This document shows positions 8,546 to 58,000 of a DNA stretch of 64,000 nucleotides, one piece after another (positions within the stretch are counted from its first letter, which is position 1; each line of letters opens with the position of its first letter). Below the pieces are notes generated by a model, which saw only the letters and a program-made list of their open reading frames with translations, did not search any database and was not told where the DNA came from. The position numbers and the translations under genes were made by a program. The DNA comes from Phycisphaerae bacterium (GTDB lineage: Bacteria; Planctomycetota; Phycisphaerae; SM23-33), in contig JAWLCQ010000001.1 of NCBI GenBank assembly GCA_041687095.1, positions 25,664-89,663 on the forward strand, written 5' to 3'.

Positions 8546-8549
8546 CCGC

Positions 8550-18726: not shown

Positions 18727-18803
18727 GTTTTGCACCTCTGCCAAGCAGCCAATCAACGAACACCCGCTGCACAACTGGTCTCCAGCCGTCCGGCATTCCG
18801 GTC

Positions 18804-31191: not shown

Positions 31192-32700
31192 CTACCCTTC
31201 GGCGCGGCCGGGGCGGAACTGCAGATCGTACACGCAGTCGTTCAGCTCGAAGTACTCCTCGGCGTTGACGTCGGTGACGGGGACTCCGTCGATGGTCAGG
31301 TTCTCGAAGACGATGTCGCGGTGGCCGTTCTCTGCGTCCTTGCCGATGATCCGGCTCTTGCGGCAGTCGAGGTTCTGGCGGCCTTCCACGGTGATGTTGC
31401 GGAAGCGCAGGTTGCGGGTATTACCGTTGCAGAGGTTCCGCTTGCCTTCGGGCCACGGGTAGGGGCGGTTCTCGATCCAGACCAGGCGGCAGTTGGCGTT
31501 CAGGTCGCCCTCGATGCGGATGTCCTCGTAGCGGTGGTTCTTCACGCCGGTGTCGCTCGCGGTCCCGTCGATGACGCACTGGAACACCGCGTGCTCCGGG
31601 CAGACCTTGATGTCGATGTTCTCCGCCACGGCCGTGAAGTCGTGGTCGAGGGAATTGGCCCAGTAGCTCATGCAGAAGATGTTGTTGTTGGACGAGCTGA
31701 CGAAGGAGTTGCGAATGGCCATGTTCCCCCGGAAGTTGTCCCGGGTAAAGAACACGTCATCGCCGACGAAGGCGAAGCACTGGTCCACGAAGGCCGTCTG
31801 CTGGGGGTTGGGGGAGAGGTAGAACCCATCGGTGGACCCGTACCAGGGGGAGATCAGCTTGACCCCGTAGATCTCCTGGAGTCCGTAGAACGTGCAGTAC
31901 CACGGGGTGTTGACGATGGTGACGCCCTCGAGGCGGTTGCCCGTCGGGCCCGCCCCCCCGGGCCCCCCGGCCACCATGAGGTAGGGGCGCTTCTCCTGGG
32001 ACGACAGGCCCTCCAGCGACTCCCCGGGCCACAGTTCTCCGGACAGGACGCCCGGGCCCAGAATCCGCACGTCGCGCTGCCCGGCGAGGTCGAAGGTGCC
32101 CCGCACCCACGCCCCCCCGTCGAGGTAGATTGCCCGTCCGCTCTGCGCCCGGTGCCCCAGCCCGAGGGTATGCACCCCGGGGCCGAAGTACTCGGCCCCC
32201 TCGGGCACCGGCGGTTTGGGCGCGTCGGCGAAGAGGAACACGGGGTTCGCGTCGTCCCCGTCCACCGTCACCCACGCCTTGTCGAGGGGGGTGAGGGTGA
32301 AGACGGCCCGGCCGTCTTCGATCGCGGCGGCGATGGCCTTGGACCTGGGGCTGATCTCGACGCGCCCGATCCCCCCGGAGAGCTTGGTGACGCGCACGCG
32401 GACCGCCCCCGAGGTCCCAAACGTCGCGAAGCTCACGCTCGGGTGCTCCCCGCGGCGCCACCCGTAGCAGATGCACAGCCGGGCGACCTTGTAGAGGTAC
32501 ACCGCCTGCCACCCCGCCCCGTCGTGCACCTCGACGGTGTAGAGATCGGAGCGGTAGGTCTCCACGCCCGGGCCCGGGTAGATCTCCAGCACGGCGGAAC
32601 CCGGTGCGGGCGCCGCCGCTCCCTCGGGACAGGCGGGCGATGGGGCGGGCGACGGTCTCTGTGGATCGGTCGTTGCCATGGGGCTTCCCTTCTTGCTCAA
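31192..32700 (-). CDS. Right-handed beta-helix glycoside hydrolase-like protein (GH28/GH49-like pectin-lyase fold)
   Basis: 502 aa, N-terminal Pro/Ala-rich leader, then repeated beta-helix rungs (NIDIKVC, IRIEGDLNANCRLVWIEN, LRFRNITVEGRQNLDC, IVFENLTIDG). Alternative start MATT at 32679. Confidence 0.55.
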   Translation of the reverse strand: MSKKGSPMATTDPQRPSPAPSPACPEGAAAPAPGSAVLEIYPGPGVETYRSDLYTVEVHDGAGWQAVYLYKVARLCICYGWRRGEHPSVSFATFGTSGAVRVRVTKLSGGIGRVEISPRSKAIAAAIEDGRAVFTLTPLDKAWVTVDGDDANPVFLFADAPKPPVPEGAEYFGPGVHTLGLGHRAQSGRAIYLDGGAWVRGTFDLAGQRDVRILGPGVLSGELWPGESLEGLSSQEKRPYLMVAGGPGGAGPTGNRLEGVTIVNTPWYCTFYGLQEIYGVKLISPWYGSTDGFYLSPNPQQTAFVDQCFAFVGDDVFFTRDNFRGNMAIRNSFVSSSNNNIFCMSYWANSLDHDFTAVAENIDIKVCPEHAVFQCVIDGTASDTGVKNHRYEDIRIEGDLNANCRLVWIENRPYPWPEGKRNLCNGNTRNLRFRNITVEGRQNLDCRKSRIIGKDAENGHRDIVFENLTIDGVPVTDVNAEEYFELNDCVYDLQFRPGRAEG

Positions 32701-32773
32701 GGCCGCTGCCGTACTATCGCTCCGTCCCGCGGGCCGGTGACGGTGCGGGATTCGCAGAGCAGCGGCGGGGGGT

Positions 32774-34078
32774 TCATTCGTTGGCTCGGGGGGGGAGGTC
32801 CGGCACGATCGCGCCGTGCTCCCGGAGCAACTCGTGCAGTTCGGTCAGGGGCACCGCCTCGGGATCGACCCGGCGGCGGGCGGCGAGTGCGGCCAGCGCT
32901 CCGGCGGCCTGTCCGACGGCCATGCAGGTCGCCTGCACGCGGAGGGCGGAGTTGGCGAGGCGGTCGCTGGAGATGCAGCGGCCGGCGACGAGGAAGTTGC
33001 GGCTATTCTGGGGCAGCAGCGCCCCGCGGGGGACGGTGGGCACGACGCCCTCGGAGAGCGGTTCACACTGCAGCCCTCCGCCCGAGGACGTGTGCAGGTC
33101 GATCGGGTAGAACGAGTAGCAGACCGCGTCGTCCCACACGCGCCCGGAGCAGTAGTCCTGGACCGTGACCGTCCGCTTGCCCCGGATGGTGACCGTCTCG
33201 CGCACACCGCACTCGGGCGACAGGTGCTCGATCACCAGGGCCTCCAGGCCCTTCTGGCGGCGGAGGAAGCGGTACAGGCGGAGCAGCCCCCTCCGGGCCT
33301 CCAGTTCCAGCCGCGTCCTGCCCTCGCTGTCGCGGGCGTTGATGTGGTGGACGTGGCTGGCGTTCTCGCCGCGCTTTCGGAGCCACGTTCCGGCATCGGC
33401 GGCGGCGGGGTTCCAGGAGGCGTCGGTGTACTGCATGCGTCCGGCCCGCACTTCGGCGTCGAAGGCGCGGTTGATGGCGTCGAGGTCCAGGCTCGCCGGA
33501 TCATAGCCGCCGGCGCGGCAACTGAGGGTGGCGGGCTGGGTCTCGGGGGGGACGTGGAGGGCAAAGCCCGCCAGGGCGGCGGCGTTGGCGTCGGCGGTGG
33601 CGTCGATGACCACGGCTCCCGTCCGGGTGGTCAGCCCGCTCTTGGTGCAGAGCGTCACGCTCCAGCCCCCGTCCTGGGGCAGGGGGGTGACGTCGGCGAC
33701 CATGGTGTGCAGGAGGATCTCCACCCCGGCGGCGGCGACGCTCTCGTCGCACAGGGCGGCGTAGAGGAAGGGGGTCACGCGGACGTGGTGCTTCCAGTGC
33801 GGCTGGCGGAAGTCGCGGAAGTCCGGCACCTGCCCGCCGGCCTCGCGAACGCAGCGGGCCACGATCTCCCAGCCGATGCCGGCGATGACGGGGCGGCCCC
33901 AGGCGTGGAAGAGCCCGGGATACGCCACCCCGCCGCTCGTCGTGGTCCCTCCGAGCATGCCGTTCTTCTCGACCAGGAGCGTGCGGGCCCCGGCGCGTCC
34001 GGCCTGGATGGCCGCGACCACCCCGGCCGACCCGCCCCCGAGGACGATGACGTCGTACTGTGGCATGGAGGAGGTCAT
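32774..34078 (-). CDS. FAD-dependent oxidoreductase (FAD_oxidored family common in polysaccharide-utilisation loci)
   Basis: YDVIVLGGGSAGVVAAIQAGRAGARTLLVEK is a Rossmann dinucleotide-binding motif. The start MTSSMPQYD (aa 67 of ORF 32774..34276) avoids a non-protein-like leader. Confidence 0.75.
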   Translation of the reverse strand: MTSSMPQYDVIVLGGGSAGVVAAIQAGRAGARTLLVEKNGMLGGTTTSGGVAYPGLFHAWGRPVIAGIGWEIVARCVREAGGQVPDFRDFRQPHWKHHVRVTPFLYAALCDESVAAAGVEILLHTMVADVTPLPQDGGWSVTLCTKSGLTTRTGAVVIDATADANAAALAGFALHVPPETQPATLSCRAGGYDPASLDLDAINRAFDAEVRAGRMQYTDASWNPAAADAGTWLRKRGENASHVHHINARDSEGRTRLELEARRGLLRLYRFLRRQKGLEALVIEHLSPECGVRETVTIRGKRTVTVQDYCSGRVWDDAVCYSFYPIDLHTSSGGGLQCEPLSEGVVPTVPRGALLPQNSRNFLVAGRCISSDRLANSALRVQATCMAVGQAAGALAALAARRRVDPEAVPLTELHELLREHGAIVPDLPPRANE

Positions 34079-40578: not shown

Positions 40579-41613
40579 TCATTCGGACTTGCGCCGTTTC
40601 CGGGGTCGCGGGGCTTTCGTCGAGGCCGCGTTGGTACGGCGGGGGGTCCCGTCGGGCGGCGCCTTGTCCCCGCCGGGGTGTTCGGGCGGGGCTTCCTCGG
40701 CCGGGTTCCCCCGTTTCGTCGAGGCGGAACGGTTCGCGGCCTTCTTGGCGCGCTTCGCGGCCTTTGTGGTGGGTGTCGTGGCCTTCCTGGCTCGCTTGGA
40801 GGTGGCGGGCTTGGCGCCCGAGGCCTTGGCCGTCTTCCCCGGCTTGGTCTTGGGGGTGGGGGGCTCGGGGGCGGGCGCGGGGGCGGGTGCGGAGGGCTCG
40901 GAGGTGTCCATTTCGATACCGAACACGTCGGCGAGGTCGTTTTCGGCGATGGCCTTTCTGCCCGAGCCAGCCTCGGGGGCGAGCCCGGTCCCGGCGGCGG
41001 CTCTTTCGATGAGTTCCGCAGGGTCGACCTGCCGCAGCACGAACAGCAGTTCGGGGGCATGGTCCAGGCGGGCCCCCACCCCGTACAGCGCCGCCGCCAC
41101 GTGCTTGCACATGTCCGCCCAATCCGGGCAGGAGCAATCGAGGGAGATCTCCGAGGGCTTGGGGAACAGGCCCTGTTCGCGGTCGGTGATGATCTCCATG
41201 ACCCCCTGGGACAGCCGGCCCTGGAGGAGTTCCAGGACGGACGCGATCTTCCCCGCACACTGCGAGAGGATGGCCTGCCAGTGGGACTTGCTCAGGGGTT
41301 TGATCTTGATGCGGATCTTGTAGAGTTCCGATCCGCTCACCCACGCCGTCACCTCCCCCGGGGTGATCTGCAGGTCCACGACGGACCCGTTCCGCACGTA
41401 GGTCCGCCCGCGCGGCAGGCGGTTCTCGAAGTCGCTGTAGGACTCCAGGTTCTCGCACCAGGCCTGGCCCCAGAACGTGGTGGCGATCTTGCGGCCCTCG
41501 ACGTGCACGGGGGACACGGGGTGGCCCTTCTTGGCGAGCTTGGCCATCTCCCGGGCGGCGTTGGCGCGACGCTTGGCGACGGGAACATACTCGGGATATT
41601 CATGCCAGCCCAT
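40579..41613 (-). CDS. SWIM zinc-finger protein (SNF2-helicase-associated, YwqB-like) with a Lys/Ala/Pro-rich C-terminal tail
   Basis: CSCPDWADMCKHVAAALY is a SWIM CxCxnCxH finger. It lies directly downstream of the SNF2 gene on the same strand. Confidence 0.85.
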   Translation of the reverse strand: MGWHEYPEYVPVAKRRANAAREMAKLAKKGHPVSPVHVEGRKIATTFWGQAWCENLESYSDFENRLPRGRTYVRNGSVVDLQITPGEVTAWVSGSELYKIRIKIKPLSKSHWQAILSQCAGKIASVLELLQGRLSQGVMEIITDREQGLFPKPSEISLDCSCPDWADMCKHVAAALYGVGARLDHAPELLFVLRQVDPAELIERAAAGTGLAPEAGSGRKAIAENDLADVFGIEMDTSEPSAPAPAPAPEPPTPKTKPGKTAKASGAKPATSKRARKATTPTTKAAKRAKKAANRSASTKRGNPAEEAPPEHPGGDKAPPDGTPRRTNAASTKAPRPRKRRKSE

Positions 41614-41689
41614 GATCAGCTCCTTGCGATGGTCGGTCCATTATACCGGTCGGGCCCCGGTGCAGCAGCCCACGCTGCGCGGGGCGGCG

Positions 41690-44461
41690 TTACGCTTCGG
41701 CCGCCTTCGTGATATCCAGCGACACGAACCGCAGCAGCTCGTCGTTGGTCATCTCGGTGAGCAGCTTCTCGCCCCCCCCGTCGCCCAGCAGGTCGTTCGC
41801 CAGCCCGACCTTCTCCTCGATGAGGCGGTCGATCTTCTCCTCGACCGTCCCCTGGCAGATGAACTTGTGGACCAGGACGTTTCGCTTCTGGCCGATCCGG
41901 AACGCGCGGTCGGTCGCCTGGTTCTCGACGGCGGGGTTCCACCAGCGGTCGAAGTGGATAACGTGCGTGGCGGCCGTCAGGTTCAATCCCACGCCCCCCG
42001 CCTTGAGCGAAAGCACGAAGAACGGCGGCCCGTCCTCCTCGGCGAAGGCGTCAACCATCTCGCGGCGCTTGGCGACGGGGGTCTGCCCGTGCAGGACCAG
42101 CCCGCTTCGCCCGAACACGCCGCGCAGGTGGTCCGCCAGCGGATCGGCGATCTCGCGGAACTGCGTGAACACCAACGCCTTCTCCTGCCGCTGGGCCAAC
42201 TCCTGGCAGATGTCCGCCAGCCGCTGGAACTTCCCGCTCTCGCCCGGGGCGTACCCGTTGTCCCCCAGCCACTGCGAGGGGTGGTTGCAGATCTGCTTGA
42301 GCCGCATCAGGAACGCCAAAACCAGCCCCTTGCGCTGGATGCCCTCGCTGATCTCCAACTGCCGGGCCAACTCCTCGACCGACTGCGCATAGATGGCCGC
42401 CTGGCGGGGGCTCAGGCCGCAGTAGGTCTTCACCTCCGTCTTGTCGGGCAGATCGGCGATGATGCTCTTGTCCGTCTTGAGCCGCCGGAGGATGTAAGGC
42501 CGCACGAGCGTGCGGAGCGGGCCGTACGGGTTGTGCTCGCGCTTCTCCAACGCCTTGGCGTACCGGGCGAACTCCGCCGCCGAGCCCAGCAGCCCGGGGT
42601 TGAGGAAGTCGAACAGCGACCACAGGTCGCTCAGCCGGTTCTCCACCGGGGTGCCCGTCATCGCGAGGCGGCAGTGCGCCTTGAGCTGCTTGATGGCGCG
42701 CGTCTGGCGGGTGCCGGAATTCTTGATCGCCTGGGCCTCGTCCAGGATGACCAGGTTCCACTCCCGCTCCCGCAGCCACCCCAAGCGGTGGGCCATCCCG
42801 TAGGTGGTGATGACCAGGTCCCGCCCGTCCAGGGACCTCTCCGGGTCCGTGTCGCACGCGTCCTGCTCCGAAGGATGGGCGACCCAGACGGACAGCACCG
42901 GGGCGAAGCGATCGATCTCCGACTTCCAGTTGGCGATCAGCGAGGCGGGCACCACCAGCAGGCTCGGCACGGCGGGAGGCGCTGAGGGGTCGGCCGGACC
43001 CGCCGCCGCCTCGCCCCGCCGGGCCCGCAGGTCCAGCAGCAGCGCGAGGACCTGGATGGTCTTGCCCAGCCCCATGTCGTCCGCGAGGCATCCGCCCAGG
43101 CGAAGCTGCGCCAGGAACCGCAGCCAGTGCATCCCCACCTCCTGGTACGGGCGCAGCGTCGCGCGGAGTTCCTTCGGAACCCCATCGCCGATCCGCCCCG
43201 GGTCGCGCAGTTGGCTGATCGCGTCCTCCAGCCACTCCCCCGCCGATACGCGCGTCCACTCCCGCTGGGCTTCGGCGTCCGCCTCCTTCGCCGCCCCTCC
43301 CAGGTCCGCCCCCGACAGCAGCCGCATGCCCTCGAAGAACGTCAGGCCCCCGGAGCGGACGTCGGACTCCACCTGCTTCCAGTGCGTCAGGGCGGCCGAG
43401 AGCTTCTCGCGGTCCACCTCCACCCACTGCCCCTTGAGCCTCACCAGCCCTTCGCCCGACGCCAGCAGGGCCTGCACGTCCTCCTCGCTCAGCGCCTCGT
43501 CGCCCACGCAGACCCCGACCGAGCAGTCCAGCAGGGCGTCGGCGTTGAGGAGCGAACCCTTGCGCTTCCCGATGGTCGCGTTGACGACGGGGCGGGGCGG
43601 GCGCTTGGCCTTCCACCAGTCCGGGACGCGGACGATCAGCCCCGCCTCCTCCATGGGGGGGATGTCCTGGAGGAAGGCGTAGGCCTCCCGCGGGGTCCAC
43701 GCCAGCGGGCGGTAGATGTCCCCGGACTCGACGAGCTGCTTCACGAGTTCGCTCTTCTCGCTGGCCGCCTGGATGGGCGACAGCAGCGCGATCAGCCCCT
43801 GGCGGTTCTTCGCCCCGGCGTACTCCTGGAGGGCCTTTCCCAGCGGCCGATGCTGCAACCGGCCCTGTTCCGACAGTCGGCTGGAGTAGCTCGCCATGAA
43901 CGCGAAGGGGTACTGCTCGTCTCGCTTGTTCTCCGCCAGGTGGAAGGTGACCCGCCCGACCCCCCGCCACAGCGGGTTCCTCTCGCGGAGGTACGCCTGT
44001 ACCCCGCCGGCAGACGCGCGGATCTCCGCCCGCACGAACTCGTCCAGCTCCCGCCACCAGCCCTGCAGGACCTCGGCCGAGAGGTACTCCAGCCCCTTCA
44101 TGGGCGGGGCCTGGAGCACGCGGAAGGCGAGTTCTTCGCTGGACGGGGGGGGCACGACCGCGGGCTCGGCGTCCCCGTCGCCCCCGGCCACGTGGCACAG
44201 GGCCGTCAGGTAGTCCCTCGCCACGTCGCGGGCGTACGCGAGGTCCGCGGGCAGGGGCGTCTGGAGTTCGACGGTTGCCAGGTGCAGCAGCCCCCTCGCC
44301 ATGCCCGTCGTGAACGCCTCCAGCACCCGCCGTCCCACCCCCTGCGGCAGTCCGGGCGCACCGGGACCGGGTGCATCGGTCGCCTCGACATGCAAGTGCC
44401 CCTGGGGCGTCACGTAGGGCGCGACCCCGGCGATCGGTGTGTCCGTATCCTGTCTGATCAT
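41690..44461 (-). CDS. SNF2-family DEAD/H helicase (YwqA-like) with roughly 430-aa N-terminal domain of unknown function
   Basis: Motif I DDMGLGKT, motif II LDEAQAIKN, motif III MTGTPVENRLSDLWSLFDF, helicase-C (FTQF..GQTPVAKRREMVDAF..LSLKAGGVGLNLTAATHVIHFDRWWNP..QATDRAFRIGQK). Confidence 0.9.
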   Translation of the reverse strand: MIRQDTDTPIAGVAPYVTPQGHLHVEATDAPGPGAPGLPQGVGRRVLEAFTTGMARGLLHLATVELQTPLPADLAYARDVARDYLTALCHVAGGDGDAEPAVVPPPSSEELAFRVLQAPPMKGLEYLSAEVLQGWWRELDEFVRAEIRASAGGVQAYLRERNPLWRGVGRVTFHLAENKRDEQYPFAFMASYSSRLSEQGRLQHRPLGKALQEYAGAKNRQGLIALLSPIQAASEKSELVKQLVESGDIYRPLAWTPREAYAFLQDIPPMEEAGLIVRVPDWWKAKRPPRPVVNATIGKRKGSLLNADALLDCSVGVCVGDEALSEEDVQALLASGEGLVRLKGQWVEVDREKLSAALTHWKQVESDVRSGGLTFFEGMRLLSGADLGGAAKEADAEAQREWTRVSAGEWLEDAISQLRDPGRIGDGVPKELRATLRPYQEVGMHWLRFLAQLRLGGCLADDMGLGKTIQVLALLLDLRARRGEAAAGPADPSAPPAVPSLLVVPASLIANWKSEIDRFAPVLSVWVAHPSEQDACDTDPERSLDGRDLVITTYGMAHRLGWLREREWNLVILDEAQAIKNSGTRQTRAIKQLKAHCRLAMTGTPVENRLSDLWSLFDFLNPGLLGSAAEFARYAKALEKREHNPYGPLRTLVRPYILRRLKTDKSIIADLPDKTEVKTYCGLSPRQAAIYAQSVEELARQLEISEGIQRKGLVLAFLMRLKQICNHPSQWLGDNGYAPGESGKFQRLADICQELAQRQEKALVFTQFREIADPLADHLRGVFGRSGLVLHGQTPVAKRREMVDAFAEEDGPPFFVLSLKAGGVGLNLTAATHVIHFDRWWNPAVENQATDRAFRIGQKRNVLVHKFICQGTVEEKIDRLIEEKVGLANDLLGDGGGEKLLTEMTNDELLRFVSLDITKAAEA

Positions 44462-45155
44462 GCCTCTGCCTCAGATTCGGGAGTCTGCCCCGCCAATGCG
44501 CGGCCTCCGCGGCAACCGTCATCGTCAGCCGCCCGTCGCCAACCGTCAGCCAGACAGTACCACCAACCTCCCAACGACGAACAGAGGCAAGCAGTTCCGG
44601 TCCTTCCCGGCCGCATCCGGAAACGTGGGTATCTCGATCCTTCGTGCGGGTTCGGGAAGGGGTGTTTGGGTGGAACGGGCCCGCAAGGCAGGGCGATGGG
44701 GGCGAGCGCCAACAGTCCTTGGCGGAGCGGAGCTAACGCGTGGTCCTCGGGAGGTGCGGAGGGACGCCGCAGGCGGATGCTGTCTTGGATCGCCGGTCAA
44801 GACCGGCAGGGAACTGTGAACGCAAGAGCCGCACAGGAAGAATCGAGCCAGTCCTACTGCCCCAAGTCCTGCGGGGGCCGGCGCGAGGCTTTCGCCCCAA
44901 GCGGTCATTTCACCTGGAAAGATTTGACTTGCCGTAAAGTCATTCTCGTGAGAGACTGGGCGGAAAGGATGACGCAGGCCGGACTTCTTCTCGGCAATCG
45001 TGATCGCGTGAGTGAGGGCTTCCTCAGACGGTGCCGTTGGGCCATCTGGGGGGGCGCCCGCCCTTCCGTCCCCTTGGCCGCATGCGGCTTGAGGACTGCG
45101 CCCGCAAGGGAGGTTCCCGGACAATGCGGGCAGGCCGGCAGCATCGAATCGAAAG

Positions 45156-45827
45156 GTGAGGGAGCAGGAAATGGTCGCTCGTTTCGCTGCAATGGTTTGT
45201 CTCGTGGTGTGTGGTTCCGCGGTCCCGGTGCACGCCGCGATGGTTCTGGGCCTGGAGTGCGACACGTATTTCGCCAGGCCCGGGGACGTGCTGGAGCTGC
45301 GGATTCTGCTGGATGTGGATGACGCGGCGGCGGGGTGGCAGGCGCCGGCGGCGGGGCTGTTCTCGGCCGGGGCGGCGGTGAGGTTCGCCCCCGCCCTGGG
45401 GGCCGTGGCGGACGTGTCGGACATCCTTCTTCCGGGGGCGCTGTCGGAGAACGGAGCGGGCGCCCCCGCCCGCCGGGAGGTCGCCCCGGGATTCGCGGGG
45501 TTCTTCGGGGGGCTGCTGATGACCCTGGACCCGTTTACGCAGGGCTACGGCGAGCCGCTTCTGGCAACGGTGCGGCTGCAGGTGGCCCTGGGGGCGACGG
45601 GGAGCTTTCCGATCCAGTTGGACACGTATTTCCCGGCCCCGATGTCGAACCTCGTGACGTGCGACGCGCAGTCGTTGGACGACGAGGTGGAGTACCGGCC
45701 GTCGACGGTGGTCCTCATCCCCGAGCCGCTCGCCCTGTGCCTTGTGGGCGTGGGGTCCGTGGCGATGCTGTCCCGTCGGCGGGCGCGTCTGGGCCGGGGC
45801 CCGGGGCACGCCAAGGCTCGGGGCTGA
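45156..45827 (+). CDS. PEP-CTERM sorting-signal protein (putative exosortase substrate), secreted
   Basis: N-terminal signal peptide MVARFAAMVCLVVCGSAVPVHAAM; C-terminal VVLIPEPLALCLVGVGSVAMLSRRRAR is a PEP motif plus TM helix plus Arg cluster. GAGGGAG SD precedes the start. Confidence 0.75.
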   Translation: MREQEMVARFAAMVCLVVCGSAVPVHAAMVLGLECDTYFARPGDVLELRILLDVDDAAAGWQAPAAGLFSAGAAVRFAPALGAVADVSDILLPGALSENGAGAPARREVAPGFAGFFGGLLMTLDPFTQGYGEPLLATVRLQVALGATGSFPIQLDTYFPAPMSNLVTCDAQSLDDEVEYRPSTVVLIPEPLALCLVGVGSVAMLSRRRARLGRGPGHAKARG

Positions 45828-46005
45828 GTACGCCGGGGCCCGGCAGGCGTTTCGGGGGGAGGCAAGCGCATCTCTTCGTGCCGTGCCGTTTTCAGAATTC
45901 ACGATGGCAGCAAACCCCATCGTCGCTCCGACGATGGGGACCGGACAATGCGATTGAACCGCGGGCGTGCCCACGAGGCGCGCCCGTCACCCAAGGAGAG
46001 GGCCT

Positions 46006-49000
46006 ATGTCCGCGGATGCGGTGCAGCGCGCCAAGGTGCGCGGGAGCCTGACGAACGGGTCGGGGCGGATCGAGCTTCTGGAGCAGCGGATTCTTCTCAG
46101 CGGCACGCCGCTCCCCGACGCCGCCCGCCTGGGCCTGATCGAGGGCCTGACGGAGTTCGCCCAGTGGACCGACCGCCTGGGGCAGACGGAGGCCTTCACC
46201 ACGGGGCTCCCGCTGAGCGACGGGGCCACCCTGGGCACGGTCACCGCCGCCGGGGACGTCGTGCAGACCTATCTCGTGGATCGCGTCTGCCAGGTGCTCC
46301 AGAGTCCCGGAGCGACGCTGGAGGACGTGGTGAGCGCCCTGCGGGATCTGGGCGGCAGCTTCGTCGGGGATCTCGGGGGCCGGCAAGTTCCGCTGGACGT
46401 GCTGGTCGACCCGGCAGCCGTCGTCGGGGCATGGGTGGATTCCGAGATCTCCTTCTCCCTGCCGTTCCAGGCGCTGCTGCGCCCGCCGTCCGGGGTGGAC
46501 CTGGACGACGCGCTGGGGGCCCTGGGGTTCACCTCGGGCGCCGAATTCGCCCTCGATGCCCTCGGGAGCCTCACGCTGGACCTGACGTTCGGGTTCGACC
46601 TTTCCGAAGGCCTCGGTCAGGCCGAACAATTCTTCCTCCGCCCCGTCGAGATGCTGCTGGAGGCGGACCTGTCCGGCGCCGACTTCGATCTGCCCGATCT
46701 GCGCATGGGCTTCATGGATCTGGGAATCACGCACGGATCGATCTCACTGTCCGGATTGGCCGACGTGAGCTTCGTCAACCCCGACGCCGACCTCCTGGGC
46801 AGGATCACCCTCGATGAACTGCGGAACACGGCGATGGACGTGCTGGCCGCCGTGACGCCCGGGGGCACGCTCCAGGCGTCGCTGCCGCTGTCGGGGGTGC
46901 TGGGGGCCATGGGCCTGGGAGCCCCGCAGATCTCGCTGAACTGCCTGGACGTGTTCCAACTGCCGGTGGAGATGGGCTTCAATGCCGACTTCGAGGCGCT
47001 GCTGCCCCTGGGGCGGATCGATCCGGCGATGGTGCTGGAGGCGTTCGACAGCCTCGGGGCGTCGTTGACGTCGCTGCAGCGATCCGACGTGTTCGCGCGG
47101 ATCGAGGGACTGGGCGCCCAGAAGCTCTCCGATCTGCTGCGGCTGGGGGAGAACCTCCGGGGGATCATCGACGAGGTGCTGATGCGCCCGATCGATGGCG
47201 CCCACGGGCTCTACGAGTCGGCCTTCGACTCGGCCCAGAGCCTGCTGGAGCGCCTGGCGGCCTACCCGCAGAGCGTCCTGAGCAGCAGTGCGGACTACCT
47301 GGACGGCGTGCTGACGTACACGCTTCGTTTCGCCGCGAGCGACGCCCTGGAGGGGGACTTCGCCTACGACTACTCCGACGGTCCGCTGTCCCTGAGCGCT
47401 ACGGGCACGGTCAGCGGCGAGGTCGGGACCGAGGTGGCGCTGACGCTGGGGCTGGACCTGTCGGCCCTGTCGGCGGAGGTGATCGCGGCCGGGGCCGCCC
47501 CGGTCGGTGGGCAACTGGATCGCTCGGCCGAGTTCTCCGTGCAGGTGGGATCGGACGCGCCCGTGCGCGTGACGGTTCCCGCCGAGGCGACGGCAGACAA
47601 CGCCGGCCTGGACGATCTGGTGGCCGACATCAACGCCGCGCTGGCCGACGCGGGGCTGGTGGCCTGGACGGGTGCGGGGGCGGTGCTGCTGGTCGAGGCC
47701 CGCCGGGTCACCGTCGAGACCGCCGACGGGGAGCGGCAGCGCATCGCGCTGCGGACGCTGGGCCCGTGGGTGGCGGCTCGCCTGAGCGTCACGCCCGGGG
47801 CGGGGGCGGGGCAGCTTGGCTTCACGAGCGCCATGGAAGACCACTGCCGCCCCGAGGACTTCGCGTTCGTGCAGGACGCGGGGGCGTCGGCGAGCATGCT
47901 TGTGGCGGCCCAGATGCCCGAGGGGCACGGGCGCCTGGGCATGCTGGGTGGGATCACGTTGACAAACGGAGCCGCCTGGGTCGGCGGGACCGGGTACACC
48001 CCCGCGAGCCCCGTCCCAGCCACCGTGTCGTTCCAGATCGGGCAGGCGGGCGTTCGCTACGGTCTGGGCGACCTGGCGGAGACGATCGGGTCCGACGCGG
48101 CCGGTCTGGTCGAGGACTCGCTGACGACGGACGTGCAGGCGGGCTACCAGTTCACGGTGACGATCGAGGGCCAGACCGCCGAGTTGCTGGGCCTGGACCC
48201 GCTGGCGGTGCGGAGCATCGAGGTGCTGTACCCGGACGTGGTGGGCGGCCTGGCGCCGGTCATCAGCACCGTGGGGATGGACGAGCTGCTGGCCGCGGGG
48301 CAGCAGATCACGCGCGGGCAGATCGTCGAGGCGCTGCACGCCCTGGTGGACTTCCTGCAGGGGCTCGAATCGCTCCAAGGCCCGCTGAGCTGGCGCCTGC
48401 CCGGAACGGGCCTGAGCGTCAACGAGATGGTGGACTGCGCCCAGGATCTCGCGAGGCTCATCGAGCGGATCAACGCCGAGGGGCTCACCGCGCTGAACGA
48501 CAGCCTGTCGGGCCTCGCCGCCACCGTCCGCGACGTGCTGGGGCTCGCGGAGGACCAGTTCCTCCTGCGGATCGAGCCCGCGTCGGCCGCCGGGGAGGCC
48601 GCACTGCGGATGACGCTGGACCTCGACTACGCCTTCGACCGCCAGGCGGCGGTGAACCTGGACCTCGAAACGCTCATGGGGGCGAGCCTCTGGCCCCAGA
48701 TGGCGGACTACACGAGCATCCTCGGCGAATCGGGCGGGGGGACCGTTCGCGTGGACGGCAGCGCCCACGTCACGATCGACCTGGGGGTGGGCCTGTCGAG
48801 CCTCGATCCGTTCCTGTACGAGGGCACCGCCATCGGCGGGGCGCTCCGCGTGCAGGGGCGCGACCTGGCGTTCGACCTCACGCTGGGCCCGCTGCCGGGC
48901 ATGGCCGTCGCGGGCGGGCATCTGCTGGTGGGCGACTGCCCCGAGGGCGGACCGGCGGCGTACGGTGCGGGCGAGATCCCGGCCGCTGCGTTCCGCGTGG

Positions 49001-52000
49001 GCCTCACCGACACCGATCCCGCCACCGTCGAGCGCTACTACCTCTCGTCCATCGCCGACAGCGACGTGACGGGGACGCTGGACGCGCAGGTGGACCTGGT
49101 CCTGCCCTTCGAGGGCGACTGGGTGGACCCCGCCGACGCGGACCTGTGGCTGCTGGCGGGCGTGGACGCGCAGGGCGCCCTGGCGGACGTCGACGGTGAC
49201 TTCCCGACGTTCGTCATGCCCGACACGCTGAACCTCGAGGCGATGATCGACGGGCTGCGGACGCTGCTGACCCGCCTCCGCGACGCCTTGGGCACGCAGG
49301 CGTTCAACCTCAGCCTGCCCATCGTGGGCACGCAGCTCAACACCGCCTACCTCGACTCCCTGCTCGCCCGCCTGGGCGGTTGGTCGCCCTACGACGCCCT
49401 CCACGCCGCCACCTGGGCGACGAACAACCTCGCGGCGATGTTCGGGGCCTCCGCCCAGATCCAGGCGGCCGACACCGGGGACATGGACGCCGCCGACGCG
49501 GCGGCCGAGTGGATCATCCAGCTCTCCGACACCTACGCCTTCGGGGCCGCCGACGTGGACTTCGACCTGGGCCTGCCCGGGCTGGGGCTGGACATCGACG
49601 CCCACGCGGACGTGAGCCTCGACTGGGTCTTCAACCTGGGCCTGGGGTTCAGCAAGAACAAGGGCTTCTACCTCATCACCGACGACGGGGGGTTCGCGAC
49701 GGGCCTGGCGTTCGCCGGAGAGTCGCCCACGCTGGGCGTGGCGCTCACCGCGGGCGTCACCGATCTCGACGCGAGCGGGCGACTGGGCTTTCTGAACCTG
49801 ACGGCCGAGGCGATCCCCGGGGCGCCCATCGGGGCGAGCGGGCAGTTTGCCATCGACCTTTCGGGCCTCAACGGGCGGGTGTACTACAACCGCCTGGCGT
49901 CGTCGATCTACGACGTGGACGTCGCCTACGCCCTGTCCGCCGACGTCAATGCGCGGCTGGAGATCGCCTACAGCGCCAACTTCCCGTCGATCCTGTCGGA
50001 CCTGGTCATGCACTGGTCGTTCGACAACGACGACGCCACGGTTGACGCGCCGCTGTCGCTCGCCCTGGAGGACATCCGCATCGACCTGGGCGGGTATCTC
50101 GGTGGGGTCGTTTCGCCCGTGGTGGAACGCATCAACGAGGTCTTCGAGCCCCTGCAGCCGATCCTGAACGTTCTCAACACGACCGTGCCGGTGGTCTCGT
50201 ACGTCCTGGACCGCGACGTGACGATCCTCGATCTCGCCATCATGGCCGGGGGCTCGGGGGGCTACGACGTCGAGTTCCTCTCGGACGTCGCGGCCGTCGT
50301 CGACCTCGCCGGGCGGCTGCCCGCGCTCCAGTCGCACTACATCCACCTGGGGACGTACACGTTCGGTTCGGGCCTCGTGTCCGCCGACTCGCCGCTGGAC
50401 CTGGCGGTCAACGGCGGGGCGTTCGAGGGCAACGAGAACGCCCTGGTCGACGCCCGCAACGCCGGCGGCGGGTTCGGGGCGTTCCTGGACGACCTGCAGG
50501 AGATCGGGATCGAGATCCCGCTGCTGGCGGAGCCCCTCCGCGTCGTCGAGTTGTTCCTCGGCCGCGATGTTGAACTGGTGCAGTACACCACCCCGCGCCT
50601 GGCGCTGGACATCGACTTCCGCCAGCAGACCCCGATCATCTTCCCGTGGCTGGTGTTCACGATCGGGATGGACGCGAGCATCTCCGCGCAGGCGGCCTTC
50701 GGGTACGACACGCGCGGGTTGCGGCAGTACGCCGACGGGGGCGACACGGGCGACCTGCTCAACGGGTTCTACATGCGCACGGGCCCGCAGTACCCGCTGA
50801 TCCGCTTTGCGGGGCACGCCGCGCTGGGCCTGGGCGTGAGCCTCGGGGGCGTCGTCGCCGCCGGGGTCGAGGGCGGGATCGGGCTCGATGGGCACATCTA
50901 CGCCACCGACGCCGACGGCGACGGGCGCCTGCACTGGGACGAGCTGCCCGCGTTTGAACCGGGCGAGATCCTGTCGCTGTTCGATTGCGACGGGAGCATC
51001 TACTTCGACGTCCGCCTGTGGTGGGAAACGCCGATCGACGACGGAACCTACACGCTGGCGAAGGTGACGCTGATGGACTTCGGGGCCGGCACCGGCGGGG
51101 CCATCGAGCACGAGGCGGACATCGAGTTCGACCAGCGCGCCATGGGCAATTCCGTGGACCTCGGCCAGGCCCCGACCGCTCGCGTGTACCACCCCGAGCT
51201 GTGGGATTCGCGCGGAGTGCAGTGGTACCGCTTCTCCACCGACCGCGACAACGAGGTCTTCGATTTCTCGGCCGTCCGCGCCAGCGCGGGCAACGACATG
51301 GCCCTGGCCGTCTTCAACGCCGACGGGGAGCGCCTCGCCATGTCGGCCGGCTGGGGCAGTTCGCAGGCGACGCTCAACGACGTCCGCCTGGGCGAGCGGG
51401 GCGTGTACTACCTCGCCGTCATGTGCAACGACCCCGAGTGGCCGCTGGAGAGCGTCTCCGTCACGCCCAACACCGACGCGCTGACGGGCACGGTGGTGTA
51501 CTACGTCAACGACCTGGACGACTCGCCCGACCCGTACCTGATGGGCAACCCCTACACGTCCGCCCCGGGCGACGACGCCAACAGCGGTTTGGACCCCGCG
51601 CACCCCAAGGCGAGCATCTCCGCGGTGGTCTCATCGTTGACAGGCAACGAGGGGCGCGTCTACATCCTCGTCGACAGCGGGCACTACCGCGTGGACGACG
51701 AGGCCGAGCGCATCCGCCTGGCGCAGGGCAACGTGTGGTTCGTCGGGACCTGGCACACGAACGTGACGTTCGCCGCCGGTCCGCTGTTCGACCTGAACAA
51801 CGCCGGGGACGTCCACCTCTACGGGTTCAATCTCTACGGCGAGGGGACCGCGACGGCGGTCCGTACGCGCGGGGACGGCCTGTGGGACGCAGCCGCGGGG
51901 CATTATGCACCCGTCGATTCGCTCGTCATCGAGGGCAACCGCTTCGACGGCGTGGGCGTGGGCATCGACGCCGGGTGCTTCCAGAGCGTGGTGATCTCCG

Positions 52001-55000
52001 GCAACCGCTTCACGGGCGAAGGGGCCGCGGGCGTGGTGTTGGGCACATCGGCGATGGCGATGGTCTCGGGCAACAGCTACCGCGGGTACGTGGGGCAGTA
52101 CGGGCTGCGCACGGGGGGCCGGTTCAGCGCGTTCGTCGCCGACAACGAGATCGCCGGGACCGTCGCGTCCGTCTGGGCCGACGACGGCGGGTCGGTGTAC
52201 CTGCGCGGCAACACGATCAGCGGGAGCGTCGTGCTTCGCGGCGACCGCGACAACGTGGTCCGCGGGAACACCATTACCGGCGACGTGCGCCTCATCGCAC
52301 CGGCCGATCCGAACTGGGGCCAGATCGTCTGGCCGGGCGAGTGGGTGGAGGCCAACGCCCTGGCGCCCCTCCCCTACGACGAGGCGTTCTCCCAGGCGAT
52401 CGTGGGCAACGTGATCTCCGGGGCAGTCCGCGTCGAGTACGCGACAGCCACCCTCATCGAGGGCAACGTGTCCCTGGGCTCGGTGGTGGTGGCCGCGGGG
52501 AACAAGAACACGCAGATCCCGATCATCGTGCGGCTGAACGAGTCCATCGACGCCGGGGCGGGCGTCGCCGTCGAGGTGACGGGCCTGTCGTGGGCGGACA
52601 TCACCGACAACGCCCTGATCCGCGGGGCCACGGGCGTGCTCATCGACACCAGCGACCTGTGCACCGTCAGCGGGAACCTCATCGACGCGACGCAGTACGG
52701 CCTGCGGATCGTCAACGCCGGCAGCATGCTGGCGATGGAGAACCGCATCGACGCGGGCGTCGAGGGCGTCCGCATCGAGGGCAACTACTTCGTGCGGCTG
52801 GAGGGCAACGAGATCTCGGGCGGAGAGTCTTCGATCCGCGGGATCGGCAGTTGGGTGGTCCCGCGGGTGACGGGCAACCGCCTGACGGGCGGCGTGTGGT
52901 TCGAGGGCGACGGGCTGCTCGTCCCCCCCATGCTCCGCCGCCTGGGGCAGTTCCGCGAGAACGACGTCGACGGGACCGTGACGATCGACACCGGGCACCG
53001 CCTGGAAGTCCTCGGGAACCTCCTGCGGACCGGGCGACTCACCGTGACGACGGGGGGCAATGCGACGGTTTCGGACAACCTCGTGAACCAGGAGATGATT
53101 CTCACGATCGGCGGGTCCGCCGACGTGTCGTGGAACCTCGTGGACCTGGGCGACCTGCGCCTGACCGTCGCTTCGGGGCAGGCGTGGACCGTGTCCGACA
53201 ACACGCTCACCGGCGGATACGTCGGCGGGGGCGACCTCGTCGTCAGCGGCGGGACGCGGGCGCAGGCCCAGGGCAATACGGTTGTCAACGGCGACCTGCG
53301 AGTCACGATCACCGACGCCCCGACGTCTGCGACGCCCGCGAGCGTCCTCACCGACAACACGGTCTCCGGCGTCCTGTCGCTCGTCGGCGGGCCTGGCGCG
53401 GACATCCACGACAACCCGTCGCTCGGCGGTCTGCACGTGGCCATCGGCGGGGCGTGGGGGCAGGCGGATCGGGCCTGGCACACGCGGATCACCAACAACC
53501 CGGTCATCACCGGGGACTCCCACGAGGGGCGCGGGACGATCGACGTGACCGTGCCCGGGACGCTGCTGGTGAGCGGCAGCGTGGTGCAGCGCGGGCACAG
53601 CTACTTCACGGCGGCCGGGGCTGTGCGGATCGAGGGCAACGACTTCGTCGCGGGCGACCTGTTCGTCGCCATCCCCGGCGACAGCGGGACCTTCGGCGAG
53701 GCCCCCAGCGTTCTGGCGGGCAACTGGGTGCGGGCGGGGAGCGTGTGGTACAGCGGGGGGGGCGGGCTGGACCTCTACGACAACCCGATCCTCGACCGCA
53801 CGGTGGACATCGAGATCACCCAGCCGTGGACGGCCATGCCCGCGGGGCGGATGTACCACACCCGCGTCTTCACCACTCCGGGCGGGGCGCAGGCCATCGG
53901 CAACCTGCTCCTCGACATCCCCGGATCCGCCGAGGTGCGGGACACGCACTTCGACGGGTCGTGGGGCCTGCAGATCGGCGGGTCGAGCCTCGTGGGGCAC
54001 CTCGTCGAGAACGTCACGACGACATTCGGTGGGATCACGATCACGTCGGGCCCGGCGGCAACCCTGCGCGGGAACACCGTGTGGGGCGGGGTGACGGTGA
54101 ACGTGGCGGGCAACGAGTTGCCCGCGGGGACGGACTGGGCGACGGTCGTCGAGGACAACACCGTCAGCGACGGGATCTGGCTGAACCTCGACACGCGCGC
54201 GGAGGTCCGCCGCAACACCATCACCGAGAGCGGGCAGGCCTTCAGCGACGGCAGCCTGCGGATCGCGGGCGCGGCCGACAGCGGGCACGTGGTCACGGGC
54301 AACACGATCCACGGCGGCATCGAGATCACCAGCGGGCCGTGCGCGACGATCGAGGGCAACTCGCTGGCGTTCGGGAGCATCGTCCTGAACATCCCGGACG
54401 ACGAGGTCATCGTCGGGCAGGCGAACGTCACGCACATCCGCGGGAACGTGCTGGCGATGGGCGGGGTCTCGGCCCGCCTGGGCGCCGCCGCCGTCATCGA
54501 ACCGCTCGCCCTCAGCGGCGGGGGCGAACAGCCCAACGTGGTGAGCTTCCTCACGCTGACGGGCAGCTCGGCCGCCGCGCACCAGGTCCGCGGGAACCGC
54601 GTGACGGGCGACATCAGCGTCTCCGCCGGCCCGGCGGTCGTCATTGAGGACAACACCGGCCCGCTGGCGAGCGATCCGCTGGGGACGATCCGCGTCCGCC
54701 TCGGGGGGGCGGGGCAGGACGGGAGCATCGTGTCCGGCAACCGCGCGGGGACGATCGACCTTCAACTCGCCTCCGGCGGGACGATCGGCCACAACACCGC
54801 CGGCGCGGGCATGCTCCTGACGCTCGGCAACGCCGGTGGGGTGCTGCACAATACCGTGCTCGGCGGCGGGATGGCCCTCGCCGGCAGCGGCGGGGACGGG
54901 CATCTTGTGCAGGGCAACGTCGTCACGGGTGGGGTGCGAGTTTCCGCCTCGGCGGCCATCGCCCACGACATCACGGGCAACACGATTTCGGGCGCAGCGT

Positions 55001-58000
55001 ACGGCCTGGAAGTCACCGGGGGCGCCCCGGCCACGGTGCACGACAACGTCCGCATCGAGGGCGATTCCATCGGGATCCGCATCGTCGGCAACGCCCGCGT
55101 CACCGTCGAGGACAACCCCGCGATCCTCGGGACCGCCTGGGGCGTCTGGGCGGACGGGGACGGGGCCGTGCTGACGATCCGCGGCAACGACATTGTCGGG
55201 GGCGTCTACGTGGACAGCCTGCTGGGGGCCCTCATCGAGTCCAACGAGATCCACGACGGGACCACGGGCGTGTACCTCACGGGCGGCTCGACGGACGTGG
55301 TGCGCGGGAACGTCGTCCGCGGGTTCTCGACGGGCGTGCAGTTCCTGTCCGCGGCGGCCGAGGCGTACGGTAACGAGATTCACTCCAACGTCACGGGCGT
55401 CCGCACGCCGGCGACGCTGGGCGGTTCGGATTGGATCGCCCCCAACGCCATCCACCACAACACGGTGGGCGTCGAGGCCCTGGCGGGGGCGACGGTCCGC
55501 TTCAATCGCCTCGAGGCCAACGCCATCGGCATCGACGCCGCCGGCAGCGTCTCGGTGCATCACAACGTCCTGGCGGACAACAGCGCCCAGGGCGTGCTGG
55601 TCGACGCGGCCTCCAACGTGCAGGTGGTGAACAATACCATTGTGACCGCCGACGGGTTCGGCGACGGGGTGGTGGTGCAGGGCGGGTCCTCCGGGGCAGC
55701 GGTGCGGAACAACATCCTCTGGTCGCGCGGCGGGTACGGGCTGTACGTCGCGAACGACTCGCAGGTGGGCCTCGCCAGCGACTACAACAACCTGTACGCC
55801 TCGGGCAGCGGGCGCGTCGTGTGGTACCAGAGGGCGTACGACGACCTGCTGGACTGGCAGCTCGATTCGCTATACGACGCGCACTCGATCGGCTACACGC
55901 GGATCGACCCGCTGCGGGACGACCCGCGCTTCGTCGACCCCGCCGGCGGCGACTACCGCGTGCAGATGGGCTCGACGGGCATCGACCGCGGCGACCCGGC
56001 GAGCGATTTCACGCTCGAACCGTCCGTCAGCGGCGGGCGGATCAACCTTGGTGCGTTCGGTGGGACGAGCGAGGCCGCCCAGTCCTCGGCGGCGTATCTG
56101 CGCGTCGAGTACCCCGACTTCCACGCGGACTGGCAGGTGGACCGCGCGCGGAACATCCGCTGGTCGCAGTGGAACGTCGCGGGCGACGTGCGCGTCGAGG
56201 TCTACCGCACCGACGGGACGCCGGCCGCCGCGGTGGGGACGTTCGCGGCGGCGGCGGGCGAGTGCAGTTGGAGCCCCCGGATGGCTGGGCTTTCGGTGGA
56301 CCTCTCGCAGGGCTATCGCGTCCGCGTGACGTCCGTGAGCGACGGGAGCGTCTTCGCCGAGTCCCGCGAGCCGTTCTACGTCGTCCCCGTCGGGGGCACG
56401 TTCTACGTCAACGACGCCCTCACGGGCGACGACCAGTACACGACGGCCGCCGGGGACAACCGCAACCCGGGCCTGTCGCCCGACGCGCCCAAGGCGAGCG
56501 TCCTGGCGACCCTGCGCCTCTACGACCTCGGGGCGGGCGACGTCATCCGCATCGACGACGGGTACTACCCCCTGCCCACCAACCTGCTGCTGGGCGGGCC
56601 GGGGAGCGCGGGCGACGACGAGGGCGTACACCTCGACGGGCCGACGCTCGCGGGCAGCGAGGCCGTCCTCGACCGCGTCGTCACCCGCGCGGGGACGATC
56701 GCCGTGGACGTGAACCGCGCCGACGGGATCGAGCTGCGGAACCTCACGATCCGCAACGGTCAGCGCACGCTGTGGGTCCGCGAGGGGTCCGAGCGGTTCG
56801 TGGGTGAGCACCTGGACATCTCGGGCAGCGCGCTCGACGGGATCCGCATCGAGAGCGGCTGCGAGGACGTGTGGCTCCAGTCGCTGCGGGTGCATGGCAA
56901 CGGTGGGGCGGGCGTGTACGCCGCTCCTGCCCGGGTCACCCTCCTCGACAGCGAGATCGCCAACAACGCAGGAACGGGCGTTTCCTTGCCCGCGGCGGGT
57001 GCGGCGCGCATCGAGGGCAATACCGTCAGTGGGAACGCGGCAGGCATCGTCATCACGCACGCCGTCGCGGGCACGACGGCCATCGTTGGCTCGCTGGGGC
57101 ACGGCAACCTCGTGCGGAGCAATGCGGGCGACGGGATCACCGCGGTGGGCCGCGTGCTGGTCGAGGGCAACACGGTGTCGGGGCACACGGGGGCGGCGGG
57201 CATCCGCATCACCGAGGGCACGTCGGCGTATCCCGAGGCGAACGACAACGTCGTCAGCGGCAACGCGACGGGGATCGAGTCCAACACCCGCGCCTCGGTG
57301 CGCGGGAACCTGGTGTACGACAACGCCGTCCACGGCATCCGCGCGCGCGGGAGCGAGACCCTCGCGAACAACGTCGTTCACGACAGCGGCGTGGGCATCC
57401 AGCTCTGGTCGTACTACACCGGGACAATCGAGCACAACGTACTGTACGCCAACGCGACGGCCGCGGTGCGCGTCACGGGCCCCAGCACCGGGGCGATCTC
57501 GCTGCGCCACAACACCATCCATCAGACCGCCGGGGACGGCGTGCGGCTGGAAACCACCGCCGACGGTGTGACGCTCGATAACAACATCATCGTCGTCGAG
57601 GGCGGGTACGGGATCTACGTCTCCGACAACAGCCAGCCGGGCTTCTCCAGCGACGACAACCTGCTCCGCGCCACGGGCGGGGGGCGCGTGGGGTACTGGC
57701 AGGGCGAAGCGGGCAGCCTGGCGCAGTGGCGGCAGGCGTCGGGGCAGGACTCGCGCAGCCTGTCGGACGACCCGCGGTTCGTCAATGCGGCCGGCGGCGA
57801 CTACCACCTCCAGAGCCTTACCGGCAGCATGCACGGGGGGACGCTGGCGGTGGTGCTCGACGGGGCGACGGGCCTGCCCGTCGCGGCGGCGGGGACCCTG
57901 GAGTTCGACGGGGCCCAGTCGCCCGCCATCGACCGCGGGCGGGCGGGCAGCGCGTACGATCAGGAGCCGGCCCCCCACGGGGCGTTCGCGAACCTCGGGG

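Follow-up and report, generated by a model that had tools for sequence, protein, structure and literature searches.

The best-described relatives of the genes considered here are Swi2/Snf2 ATPases of archaea and bacteria. SsoRad54 from Sulfolobus solfataricus is a double-stranded DNA (dsDNA)-dependent ATPase that alters DNA topology, binds the recombinase RadA and stimulates strand exchange (PMC2677860). The subfamily of Snf2 motors to which it belongs, SSO1653, owes its definition to Flaus et al. 2006 (cited in PMC2677860) and includes Synechocystis sll1366 and Bacillus subtilis YwqA, the latter 39% identical to SsoRad54, apart from the RapA/HepA group (PMC2677860). YwqA has been described as a “poorly characterized” Swi2/Snf2 translocase and is listed among the interactors of RNA polymerase (RNAP; PMC7385302). 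A SNF2-SWIM family, joining such motors to SWIM zinc-finger proteins, has been named explicitly (PMC5512222). Here we describe one SNF2-SWIM gene pair from a Phycisphaerae bacterium (Planctomycetota), located in a stretch of 64,000 nucleotides (contig JAWLCQ010000001.1, positions 25,664 to 89,663) that is referred to below as the window. With modest confidence, the pair is read as a self-contained two-gene operon for a two-subunit, ATP-driven dsDNA translocase or remodeller that would serve the cell's own DNA transactions.

The first gene encodes the motor. In its product of 923 amino acids (aa), Pfam finds an SNF2-related domain (SNF2-rel_dom, aa 439-729; 1.7e-61, 208 bits) followed by Helicase_C (aa 746-857; 73.5 bits). 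A motif scan reads the Snf2 motifs Q, I, Ia, II, III, IV, V and VI, all intact and at the expected spacing, among them LRPYQ (Q, position 436), GLGKT (I, 464), DEAQ (II, 574), TGTP (III, 602) and QATDRAFRIGQ (VI, 848), as well as the motif sequences FTQF and GGVGLNL. An earlier reading of the locus, made from its letters alone (the sequence-only reading), had named degenerate helicase motifs as grounds for giving up its view; no such degeneration is seen. The best sequence match in the Protein Data Bank (PDB) is 1z63, the “Rad54-like” catalytic domain of S. solfataricus SSO1653 (E=1.4e-121), which leads the next best match (3.5e-71) by ~50 orders of magnitude; eukaryotic remodellers and a ZorD-like bacterial helicase lie at ~1e-66 to 1e-71. 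The alignment to the SsoRad54 catalytic domain runs from end to end of the motor (E~1e-122). On its motifs and its closest match, the motor is assigned to the SSO1653 (SsoRad54) subfamily of the Snf2 family.

The likeness extends to the layout of the protein. SsoRad54 (SSO1653/SSO1655; 1z63/1z6a) also has an N-terminal region of ~430 aa ahead of its motor (SsoRad54cd, residues 430-906), and its biochemistry is the best available guide to the window motor. The comparison rests on the catalytic domain, the only part of SsoRad54 in the PDB, and it is for the archaeal protein alone that binding and stimulation of a recombinase, RadA, have been shown (PMC2677860); the bacterial partner would be RecA. 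YwqA shares the SSO1653 subfamily with the window motor by its placement in the literature (PMC2677860). The SNF2 protein is related as well to the SCO1167/SCO6262 helicase family (NF058637), which it matches over aa 298-915 only, with 564 bits against an equivalog cut-off of 1200; by this score it is a relative and no equivalog.

The ~430 aa that precede the motor had been taken for an uncharacterised domain. A region of that size is real, the SNF2-related domain starting at about aa 435, but part of it is already catalogued: DUF3670, which bears the Pfam name “SNF2 Helicase protein”, lies N-terminal to the SNF2 domain and scores well above its gathering cut-off (Table 1). By its Pfam match, the N-terminal module (N-module) is a domain of catalogued but unknown function, DUF3670, with helical and beta segments predicted on its flanks. 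The AlphaFold2 (AF2) model of aa 1-430 is a confident one (pLDDT 90.8, pTM 0.85), and a Foldseek search of the PDB with it, in a library that held RapA structures, returned nothing similar (best E=0.08, TM <0.12). Identity to orthologues across phyla is 40-68%, and 21 columns are invariant in 74 sequences. DUF3670 also occurs in the orthologue on a Bradyrhizobium plasmid and in a Wolbachia WO fusion protein described below. We take YwqA to carry it too, and the adjoining ywqB to encode a SWIM protein.

The second gene encodes the SWIM partner. Its match to the SWIM zinc finger (PF04434, aa 158-177) reaches 21.4 bits against a cut-off of 19.6, and the four ligands, C160, C162, C169 and H171, are invariant in 63 aligned sequences; the protein is assigned to the SWIM family and carries a predicted zinc-binding motif. 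More than 8000 homologues are 53-81% identical across phyla over the 236-aa core, and clustering at 50% yields 1179 clusters at E<=1e-30 and 3936 at E<=1e-10. The AF2 model of the core (pLDDT 79, pTM 0.75) matches no structure in the PDB or BFVD, and the protein has no sequence match to any solved PDB chain.

Beyond residue 236 the homologues can no longer be aligned, and their sequence becomes one of low complexity, rich in K, R, A, P, S and T. The sequence-only reading had noticed the Lys/Ala/Pro-rich, histone-H1-like tail of the window protein, called it unusually long and suggested that it binds DNA non-specifically. The tail is real (Table 1), but its 108 aa fall within the range of 27-133 aa found in 62 homologues (median 74.5), and the longest cluster representatives reach 450-650 aa in total, with far longer K/A/S/T repeat tails. 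All 62 tails are basic, with a median net charge of +17 and a minimum of +7. Across these homologues the basic tail is a trait of the SWIM family and no peculiarity of the window locus. In two of these representatives (P0384 and P0267) long K/A/S/T-rich repeat tails, with repeated “AVPESAVSTKKATAETAK” units for example, are followed by a C-terminal XRE-type helix-turn-helix (HTH) that passes Pfam thresholds. A DNA-binding role is strengthened by the retention of the tail throughout the family and by the presence of an HTH at the same end of some members, and the tail is most simply, and plausibly, read as a non-specific DNA-binding module. Three further proteins (P0367, P0321 and P0380) carry long C-terminal extensions that are not basic; their nature is unclear and they may be gene-call chimeras.

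How firmly are the two genes held together? A scan of one genome per species gave at least 594 confirmed relatives, and the best 80 loci, from Planctomycetota, Verrucomicrobiota, Acidobacteriota, Myxococcota, Desulfobacterota, Alpha-, Beta- and Gammaproteobacteria, Lentisphaerae, Binatia and Eremiobacterota, were used to assess pairing. In 74 of these 80 the SWIM gene is immediately preceded by a co-oriented SNF2 orthologue that ends within ~650 nt of it. Four of the remaining loci have insertions of 1.3-8 kb, one contig begins at the SWIM gene, and one locus shows no SNF2 gene over the 3 kb of upstream sequence that it offers. On the Bradyrhizobium plasmid pBb144S4c the SNF2 stop abuts the SWIM start. 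When 1051 neighbourhood open reading frames (ORFs) were clustered, the SNF2 and SWIM families appeared in 80 and 78 of 81 loci; no conserved third component was found among these ORFs, the next family being present in 6 loci, and the genes flanking the pair are randomly oriented. The pair is therefore as widespread as the sequence-only reading had held, with tight linkage in genomes from ~10 phyla, and the comparison of neighbourhoods that it proposed finds only the two families conserved. The association of the two genes was reportedly recorded by Makarova, Aravind and Koonin in 2002, in the first description of the SWIM domain.

The pair apparently tolerates splitting by 1-8 kb. In one relative (L024, 1954-10001) the SNF2-SWIM spacer has been invaded by a group II intron reverse transcriptase and three DDE transposases; in others it holds a HepT-like/NTase-substrate-binding protein (L078, 2990-5799) or an AAA_21/AAA_15 ATPase (L006, 8289-9970), and one more relative has an invaded spacer (L049, 8646-10001). 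Since the inserts are an intron reverse transcriptase, transposases, a HepT-like protein and an AAA_21 protein, they are taken as mobile or toxin-antitoxin (TA) elements and not as a recurrent component of the unit.

The two partners also occur as single polypeptides. One fusion is a protein of 946 aa in a Wolbachia phage WO record, made up of SWIM core, DUF3670 and SNF2 and related to the window proteins over the SWIM core (32% identity, 3e-26) and the motor (34% identity, 2e-63). Its coding sequence (L082, 8983-11823; record MN180251) is labelled “UNVERIFIED” and “SNF2/RAD54 family helicase”, and breaks off within the SNF2-related domain (aa 946; profile position 245 of 290), without Helicase_C; this copy may be truncated, split or a pseudogene. 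The other fusion, phrog_29996, has a profile of 1189 positions and includes the full motor; its match to the SWIM core spans positions 6-177 and its match to the motor 720-1184. Like the window pair, both combine SWIM core, DUF3670 and motor; they differ in forming one polypeptide with the SWIM core N-terminal and no basic tail there, in their identity of ~32-34% and in their prophage or phage context. An SNF2 protein linked or fused to a SWIM-domain protein is what is found in the window, in the 74 relatives and in the fusions, and the adjacency together with two independent fusions argues strongly that the partners would work as a physical complex.

How might such a complex act? In the cellular translocase that we favour, the large subunit would be the SSO1653/SsoRad54-type Snf2 motor, with an N-module, including DUF3670, that most likely regulates or targets it, and the SWIM core would most likely dock on the motor protein. 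The polycationic tail would anchor the complex to duplex DNA without sequence preference. Pumping of duplex DNA against this anchor, driven by ATP, would then generate torsion or loops, and these would dislodge or shift DNA-bound proteins, for example recombinase filaments, stalled RNAP or nucleoid proteins. The candidate substrates are suggested by analogy with SsoRad54 and by the RNAP association reported for YwqA. A further analogy is offered by Sws1/ZSWIM7 of the Shu complex, which has a SWIM motif of the form CxCxnCxH and whose SWIM domain binds RecA-fold Rad51 paralogues in recombination. For a motor whose archaeal homologue binds RadA the analogy is attractive, as a lead only; to our knowledge Sws1/ZSWIM7 has no detectable similarity to the window SWIM protein beyond the ~20-residue motif.

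It is also conceivable, though improbable, that the two proteins form a bacterial “chromatin remodeller” of minimal, two-subunit design. Here the histone-H1-like polycationic subunit would clamp the nucleoid through its tail, or through the HTH in some lineages, while the motor would pump DNA and evict or reposition nucleoid-associated proteins, recombinase filaments or RNAP. Were this so, the anchor-plus-motor logic of eukaryotic remodellers would have a prokaryotic prototype in the pair, whose N-module and SWIM-core fold are both without solved structural relatives.

In the cellular translocase reading, complex formation, the tail as DNA anchor and the remodelled substrate are steps that we infer, and several points weigh against it. 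The roles given to the N-module and the SWIM core are conjectural, since neither resembles a solved structure. The searchable literature holds no experiment on any bacterial member with its SWIM partner, and only annotation-level mentions of YwqB, HelZ, SCO1167 and sll1366; there, as the sequence-only reading put it, the function of the bacterial pair is still undefined. Deletion of ywqA has only mild phenotypes (PMC7385302). No LexA box was found upstream of the operon in any of 19 loci from phyla with a known LexA motif (Alphaproteobacteria 0/6, Gamma- and Betaproteobacteria 0/5, Verrucomicrobia 0/8), in a search of limited sensitivity that covered exact core motifs only; SOS regulation, and with it an SOS-regulated repair role, is therefore unsupported. 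The SWIM partner is carried by 151 plasmid records, of which 46 are from Streptomyces and 38 from Bradyrhizobium, with others from Cupriavidus, Nostoc and Aeromonas; 56 of the 151 are predicted to be conjugative. Now and then the pair is flanked or interrupted by mobile or TA genes. Finally, the family is also present in mobile systems, as described by Iyer et al. (PMC5512222), for which reason a conflict-related role is weighed below.

The history of the pair bears on these questions. The SNF2 tree consists of phylum-coherent clades with a few clear transfers; in 33 of 53 cases the nearest neighbour belongs to the same phylum, and the window gene falls in the Planctomycetota clade. The identity of the SWIM core across phyla and its 65 invariant columns argue for purifying selection, and descent of the pair appears to have been mostly vertical. 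Transfers of the pair between phyla are nevertheless clear from the tree in some cases: the SNF2 genes of two Acidobacteria loci (L010 and L016) are nested in the Planctomycetota clade, adjoining the window's gene, and an Eremiobacterota copy (L014) is nested inside the Verrucomicrobia. One Verrucomicrobiae metagenome-assembled genome (MFD00008.bin.2.151) has two complete SNF2-SWIM pairs on different contigs (L025 and L063); these lie in the same Verrucomicrobia clade but are not sisters, which indicates paralogy or transfer within the phylum. In phage collections the family is scarce: a set of 50,697 phage records gave 2 distant matches, and IMG/VR, among its 2.9 million contigs, 4 short ones, so that close relatives are not typically viral. 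A phage origin was rejected on the near absence of close relatives from these collections.

Could the two genes be mere neighbours without a functional link, and the tail a meaningless low-complexity product of high GC? The SWIM match in Pfam is weak, genomes of high GC do yield low-complexity stretches rich in Ala, Pro and Arg, and the sequence of the tail is itself not conserved. Yet the adjacency spans phyla of differing GC content, fused proteins exist, every one of the 62 tails has a net positive charge, and the four zinc ligands stand among strictly conserved columns; we regard this explanation as extremely improbable, the pairing and fusion data effectively refuting it. A different comparison is with RapA/HepA of Escherichia coli, like the window protein a bacterial Swi2/Snf2 ATPase with an N-terminal domain, which in RapA is autoinhibitory or targeting, and an enzyme that remodels DNA-bound RNAP. 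By this comparison, the pair would be an RNAP recycling or anti-backtracking factor, in which the N-module or the SWIM subunit binds RNAP and the motor releases or repositions stalled or post-termination polymerase. A chromosomal, housekeeping-like distribution fits such a role, and YwqA, of the same SSO1653 subfamily, is discussed as RapA/HepA-like among the RNAP-interacting translocases, its loss lowering viability ~8-fold on PcrA depletion (PMC7385302). We nonetheless consider it unlikely. The RapA group is separate from the SSO1653 subfamily in the Flaus classification (cited in PMC2677860) and RapA has no SWIM partner, and the window protein reaches only 51 bits against the cut-off of 576 of the NCBIfam RapA equivalog, in the Helicase_C region alone, while the confident N-module model resembles no PDB structure, those of RapA included. 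RapA/HepA membership was rejected on these scores and on the lack of a structural match.

It is possible, alternatively, that the pair acts against phages or plasmids, or as another conflict module, which is what the sequence-only reading had raised as an anti-invader role. A SWIM-guided motor might then act on foreign DNA without a linked nuclease, for instance by clearing replication or packaging proteins from it or by bringing in host nucleases. SNF2 motors are indeed components of Zorya, DISARM, Dpd, BREX and Hma systems, and the PADLOC models for ZorD, DpdE, DrmD, BrxH and HmaA match the window protein strongly. These matches are all confined to aa ~413-915, the generic motor, so that the comparison with PADLOC models suggested earlier recovers only a helicase core. 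In NCBIfam the equivalogs stay far from their cut-offs: 292 against 1500 for ZorD, 58 and 78 bits against 610 and 950 for DrmD, 47 against 500 for DpdE, and likewise far below for a PLD anti-phage protein. ZorD, DrmD, DpdE and BrxH share the Snf2 motor with the window protein, whereas the window pair has no nuclease, PLD or Mrr domains and no ZorABC, DrmABC/M, Dpd or Brx/Pgl partners. Zorya type I was rejected on the ZorD score, the motor-only match and neighbours that are glycoside hydrolases and a surface protein; DISARM on the DrmD scores and the lack of DrmA, DrmB, DrmC or methylase neighbours; and Dpd on the DpdE score, the motor-only match and the lack of a dpd cluster.

In favour of a defence role, the SWIM core has a weak partial match to the PADLOC defence candidate PDC-S62 (1.3e-5, 22 bits), the pair behaves as an autonomous module in variable contexts, there is some horizontal transfer in the SNF2 tree, and the plasmid carriers described above include conjugative Bradyrhizobium plasmids, on one of which, pBb144S4c, it lies near AbiEii and IS21. 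Of 123 immediate neighbours in relatives, classified with PADLOC and Pfam, ~10 (~8%) are TA- or defence-like (AbiEii, PIN, Uma2, DUF4058, SoFic, PDC-S01), and TA or mobile genes sometimes stand between the two genes. Most of the 123, on the other hand, are metabolic or transport genes (transporters, oxidoreductases, hydrolases), the commonest families occur at most 3 times each, and a defence-island context was rejected for want of enrichment beyond that ~8%. In the clustered neighbourhoods of relatives, the pair is linked to no nuclease, methylase or modification gene and to no effector or sensor gene. Its very high conservation largely follows phyla, unlike that of fast-evolving arms-race genes; the genes around the pair in the window serve housekeeping and glycan metabolism, and neither an integrase nor a tRNA-island signature was seen among them; and no paper was found in the literature that combines SWIM proteins with anti-phage defence. 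An anti-invader role is accordingly judged doubtful, and the evidence as a whole gives little support to this proposal of the sequence-only reading.

The coordinates of the pair and of its parts are collected in Table 1. With a G+C content of ~70% in the window, real genes were picked out by their third-position GC (GC3); by ORF, GC3 and Pfam, both genes are real and lie on the minus strand, where the sequence-only reading had placed them.

Table 1. Features of the SNF2-SWIM locus (positions are those of the window)
Feature	Coordinates	Strand	Basis
SNF2-family ATPase gene, assigned to the SSO1653/SsoRad54 subfamily	41690..44461	-	ORF of 923 aa, GC3 0.94; Pfam; best PDB match 1z63
N-terminal module, aa 1-430, family-specific, no solved structural relative	43172..44461	-	AF2 model; Foldseek
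DUF3670 (PF12419) segment, aa 250-381	43319..43714	-	Pfam, 110.6 bits against a cut-off of 27.6 (6e-32)
Snf2 motor, aa 435-917	41711..43159	-	Motif scan; end-to-end alignment to the SsoRad54 catalytic domain, 412 bits
SNF2-SWIM operon junction, 76-nt spacer from SNF2 stop to SWIM start	41614..41689	-	ORF coordinates
SWIM zinc-finger partner gene	40579..41613	-	ORF of 344 aa, GC3 0.89; Pfam SWIM; >8000 homologues
Conserved SWIM-protein core, aa 1-236	40906..41613	-	65 invariant columns in 63 sequences
Predicted SWIM zinc-binding motif CxCx6CxH (C160, C162, C169, H171)	41101..41136	-	Ligands invariant; Pfam SWIM, aa 158-177
Polycationic K/R/A/P/T-rich low-complexity tail, aa 237-344	40582..40905	-	108 aa, net +19, pI 11.5
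Divergent intergenic region, 694 bp, upstream of the SNF2 gene, presumed promoter region	44462..45155	.	No high-GC3 ORF

The ~700-bp non-coding stretch mentioned by the sequence-only reading corresponds to the 694-bp region upstream of the SNF2 gene, which this gene shares with a divergent small PEP-CTERM-like gene. The region has no Rfam match, and sigma-70 and terminator consensus sequences in it are not above chance. The setting between a glycoside-hydrolase cluster and a giant surface-protein locus is also as described: downstream of the pair, on the same strand, Pfam identifies BNR/sialidase-like, rhamnosidase and nucleoside-hydrolase genes, then GH43-like and melibiase genes. On the other side, the 223-aa product of the divergent gene (45156-45827, plus strand) has an N-terminal signal-like segment and, read by eye, a C-terminal “IPEP-hydrophobic-RRR” motif such as PEP-CTERM sorting signals typically show; Pfam returns no match. 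Just beyond it, a giant ORF of more than 6014 aa (45958-63999, plus strand; GC3 0.94) runs off the window. Its first 1500 aa have no Pfam match, and the remainder holds many right-handed beta-helix/NosD repeats with Kre9_KNH Ig-like, DUF5123 and malectin domains, as would be expected of a giant surface protein that binds carbohydrate; no DNA-level tandem repeats were found in this region.

The rest of the window is ordinary chromosome, with genes for a Ser/Thr kinase, a PAS hybrid kinase, MoxR/DUF58/TgpA, riboflavin synthase, PdxA and a vWA protein. The conserved trio at 14768-19883 (minus strand) consists of a MoxR AAA+ ATPase, a DUF58 protein and a TgpA transglutaminase-like protein with DUF4129. 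Two high-GC3 ORFs have no Pfam match at all (5753-8683, minus strand, 976 aa; 31192-32844, minus strand, 550 aa). A PLD-like (PLDc_2) protein at 3809-4855 (minus strand) lies near the C-terminal part of the Ser/Thr kinase gene at the left edge of the window, 37 kb from the SNF2 pair and unlinked to it. Judged by its identity of 55-80% to hundreds of others, the window locus is an orthologue like the rest, and its place on the chromosome is unremarkable.

The SNF2-SWIM gene association and the motor subfamily were already known, and the window locus leaves that picture unchanged; to a specialist it is unsurprising. What is mildly new stands at the level of the family: a strict two-gene unit, a universal, predicted C-terminal DNA-binding module, natural fusions, and no solved relative for either accessory fold. 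Of all prokaryotic motors, the SSO1653-type Snf2 ATPases come closest to the chromatin remodellers of eukaryotes, and a large share of bacterial genomes encodes them. No function has been defined for any bacterial member, however, and the obligate SWIM partner has never been the subject of study, which makes the family a legitimate open question. The comparative results sharpen the targets for experiment: exactly two genes, whose products are sometimes fused, with a polycationic or HTH end, confidently predicted folds that resemble no solved structure, and little support for a role in defence.

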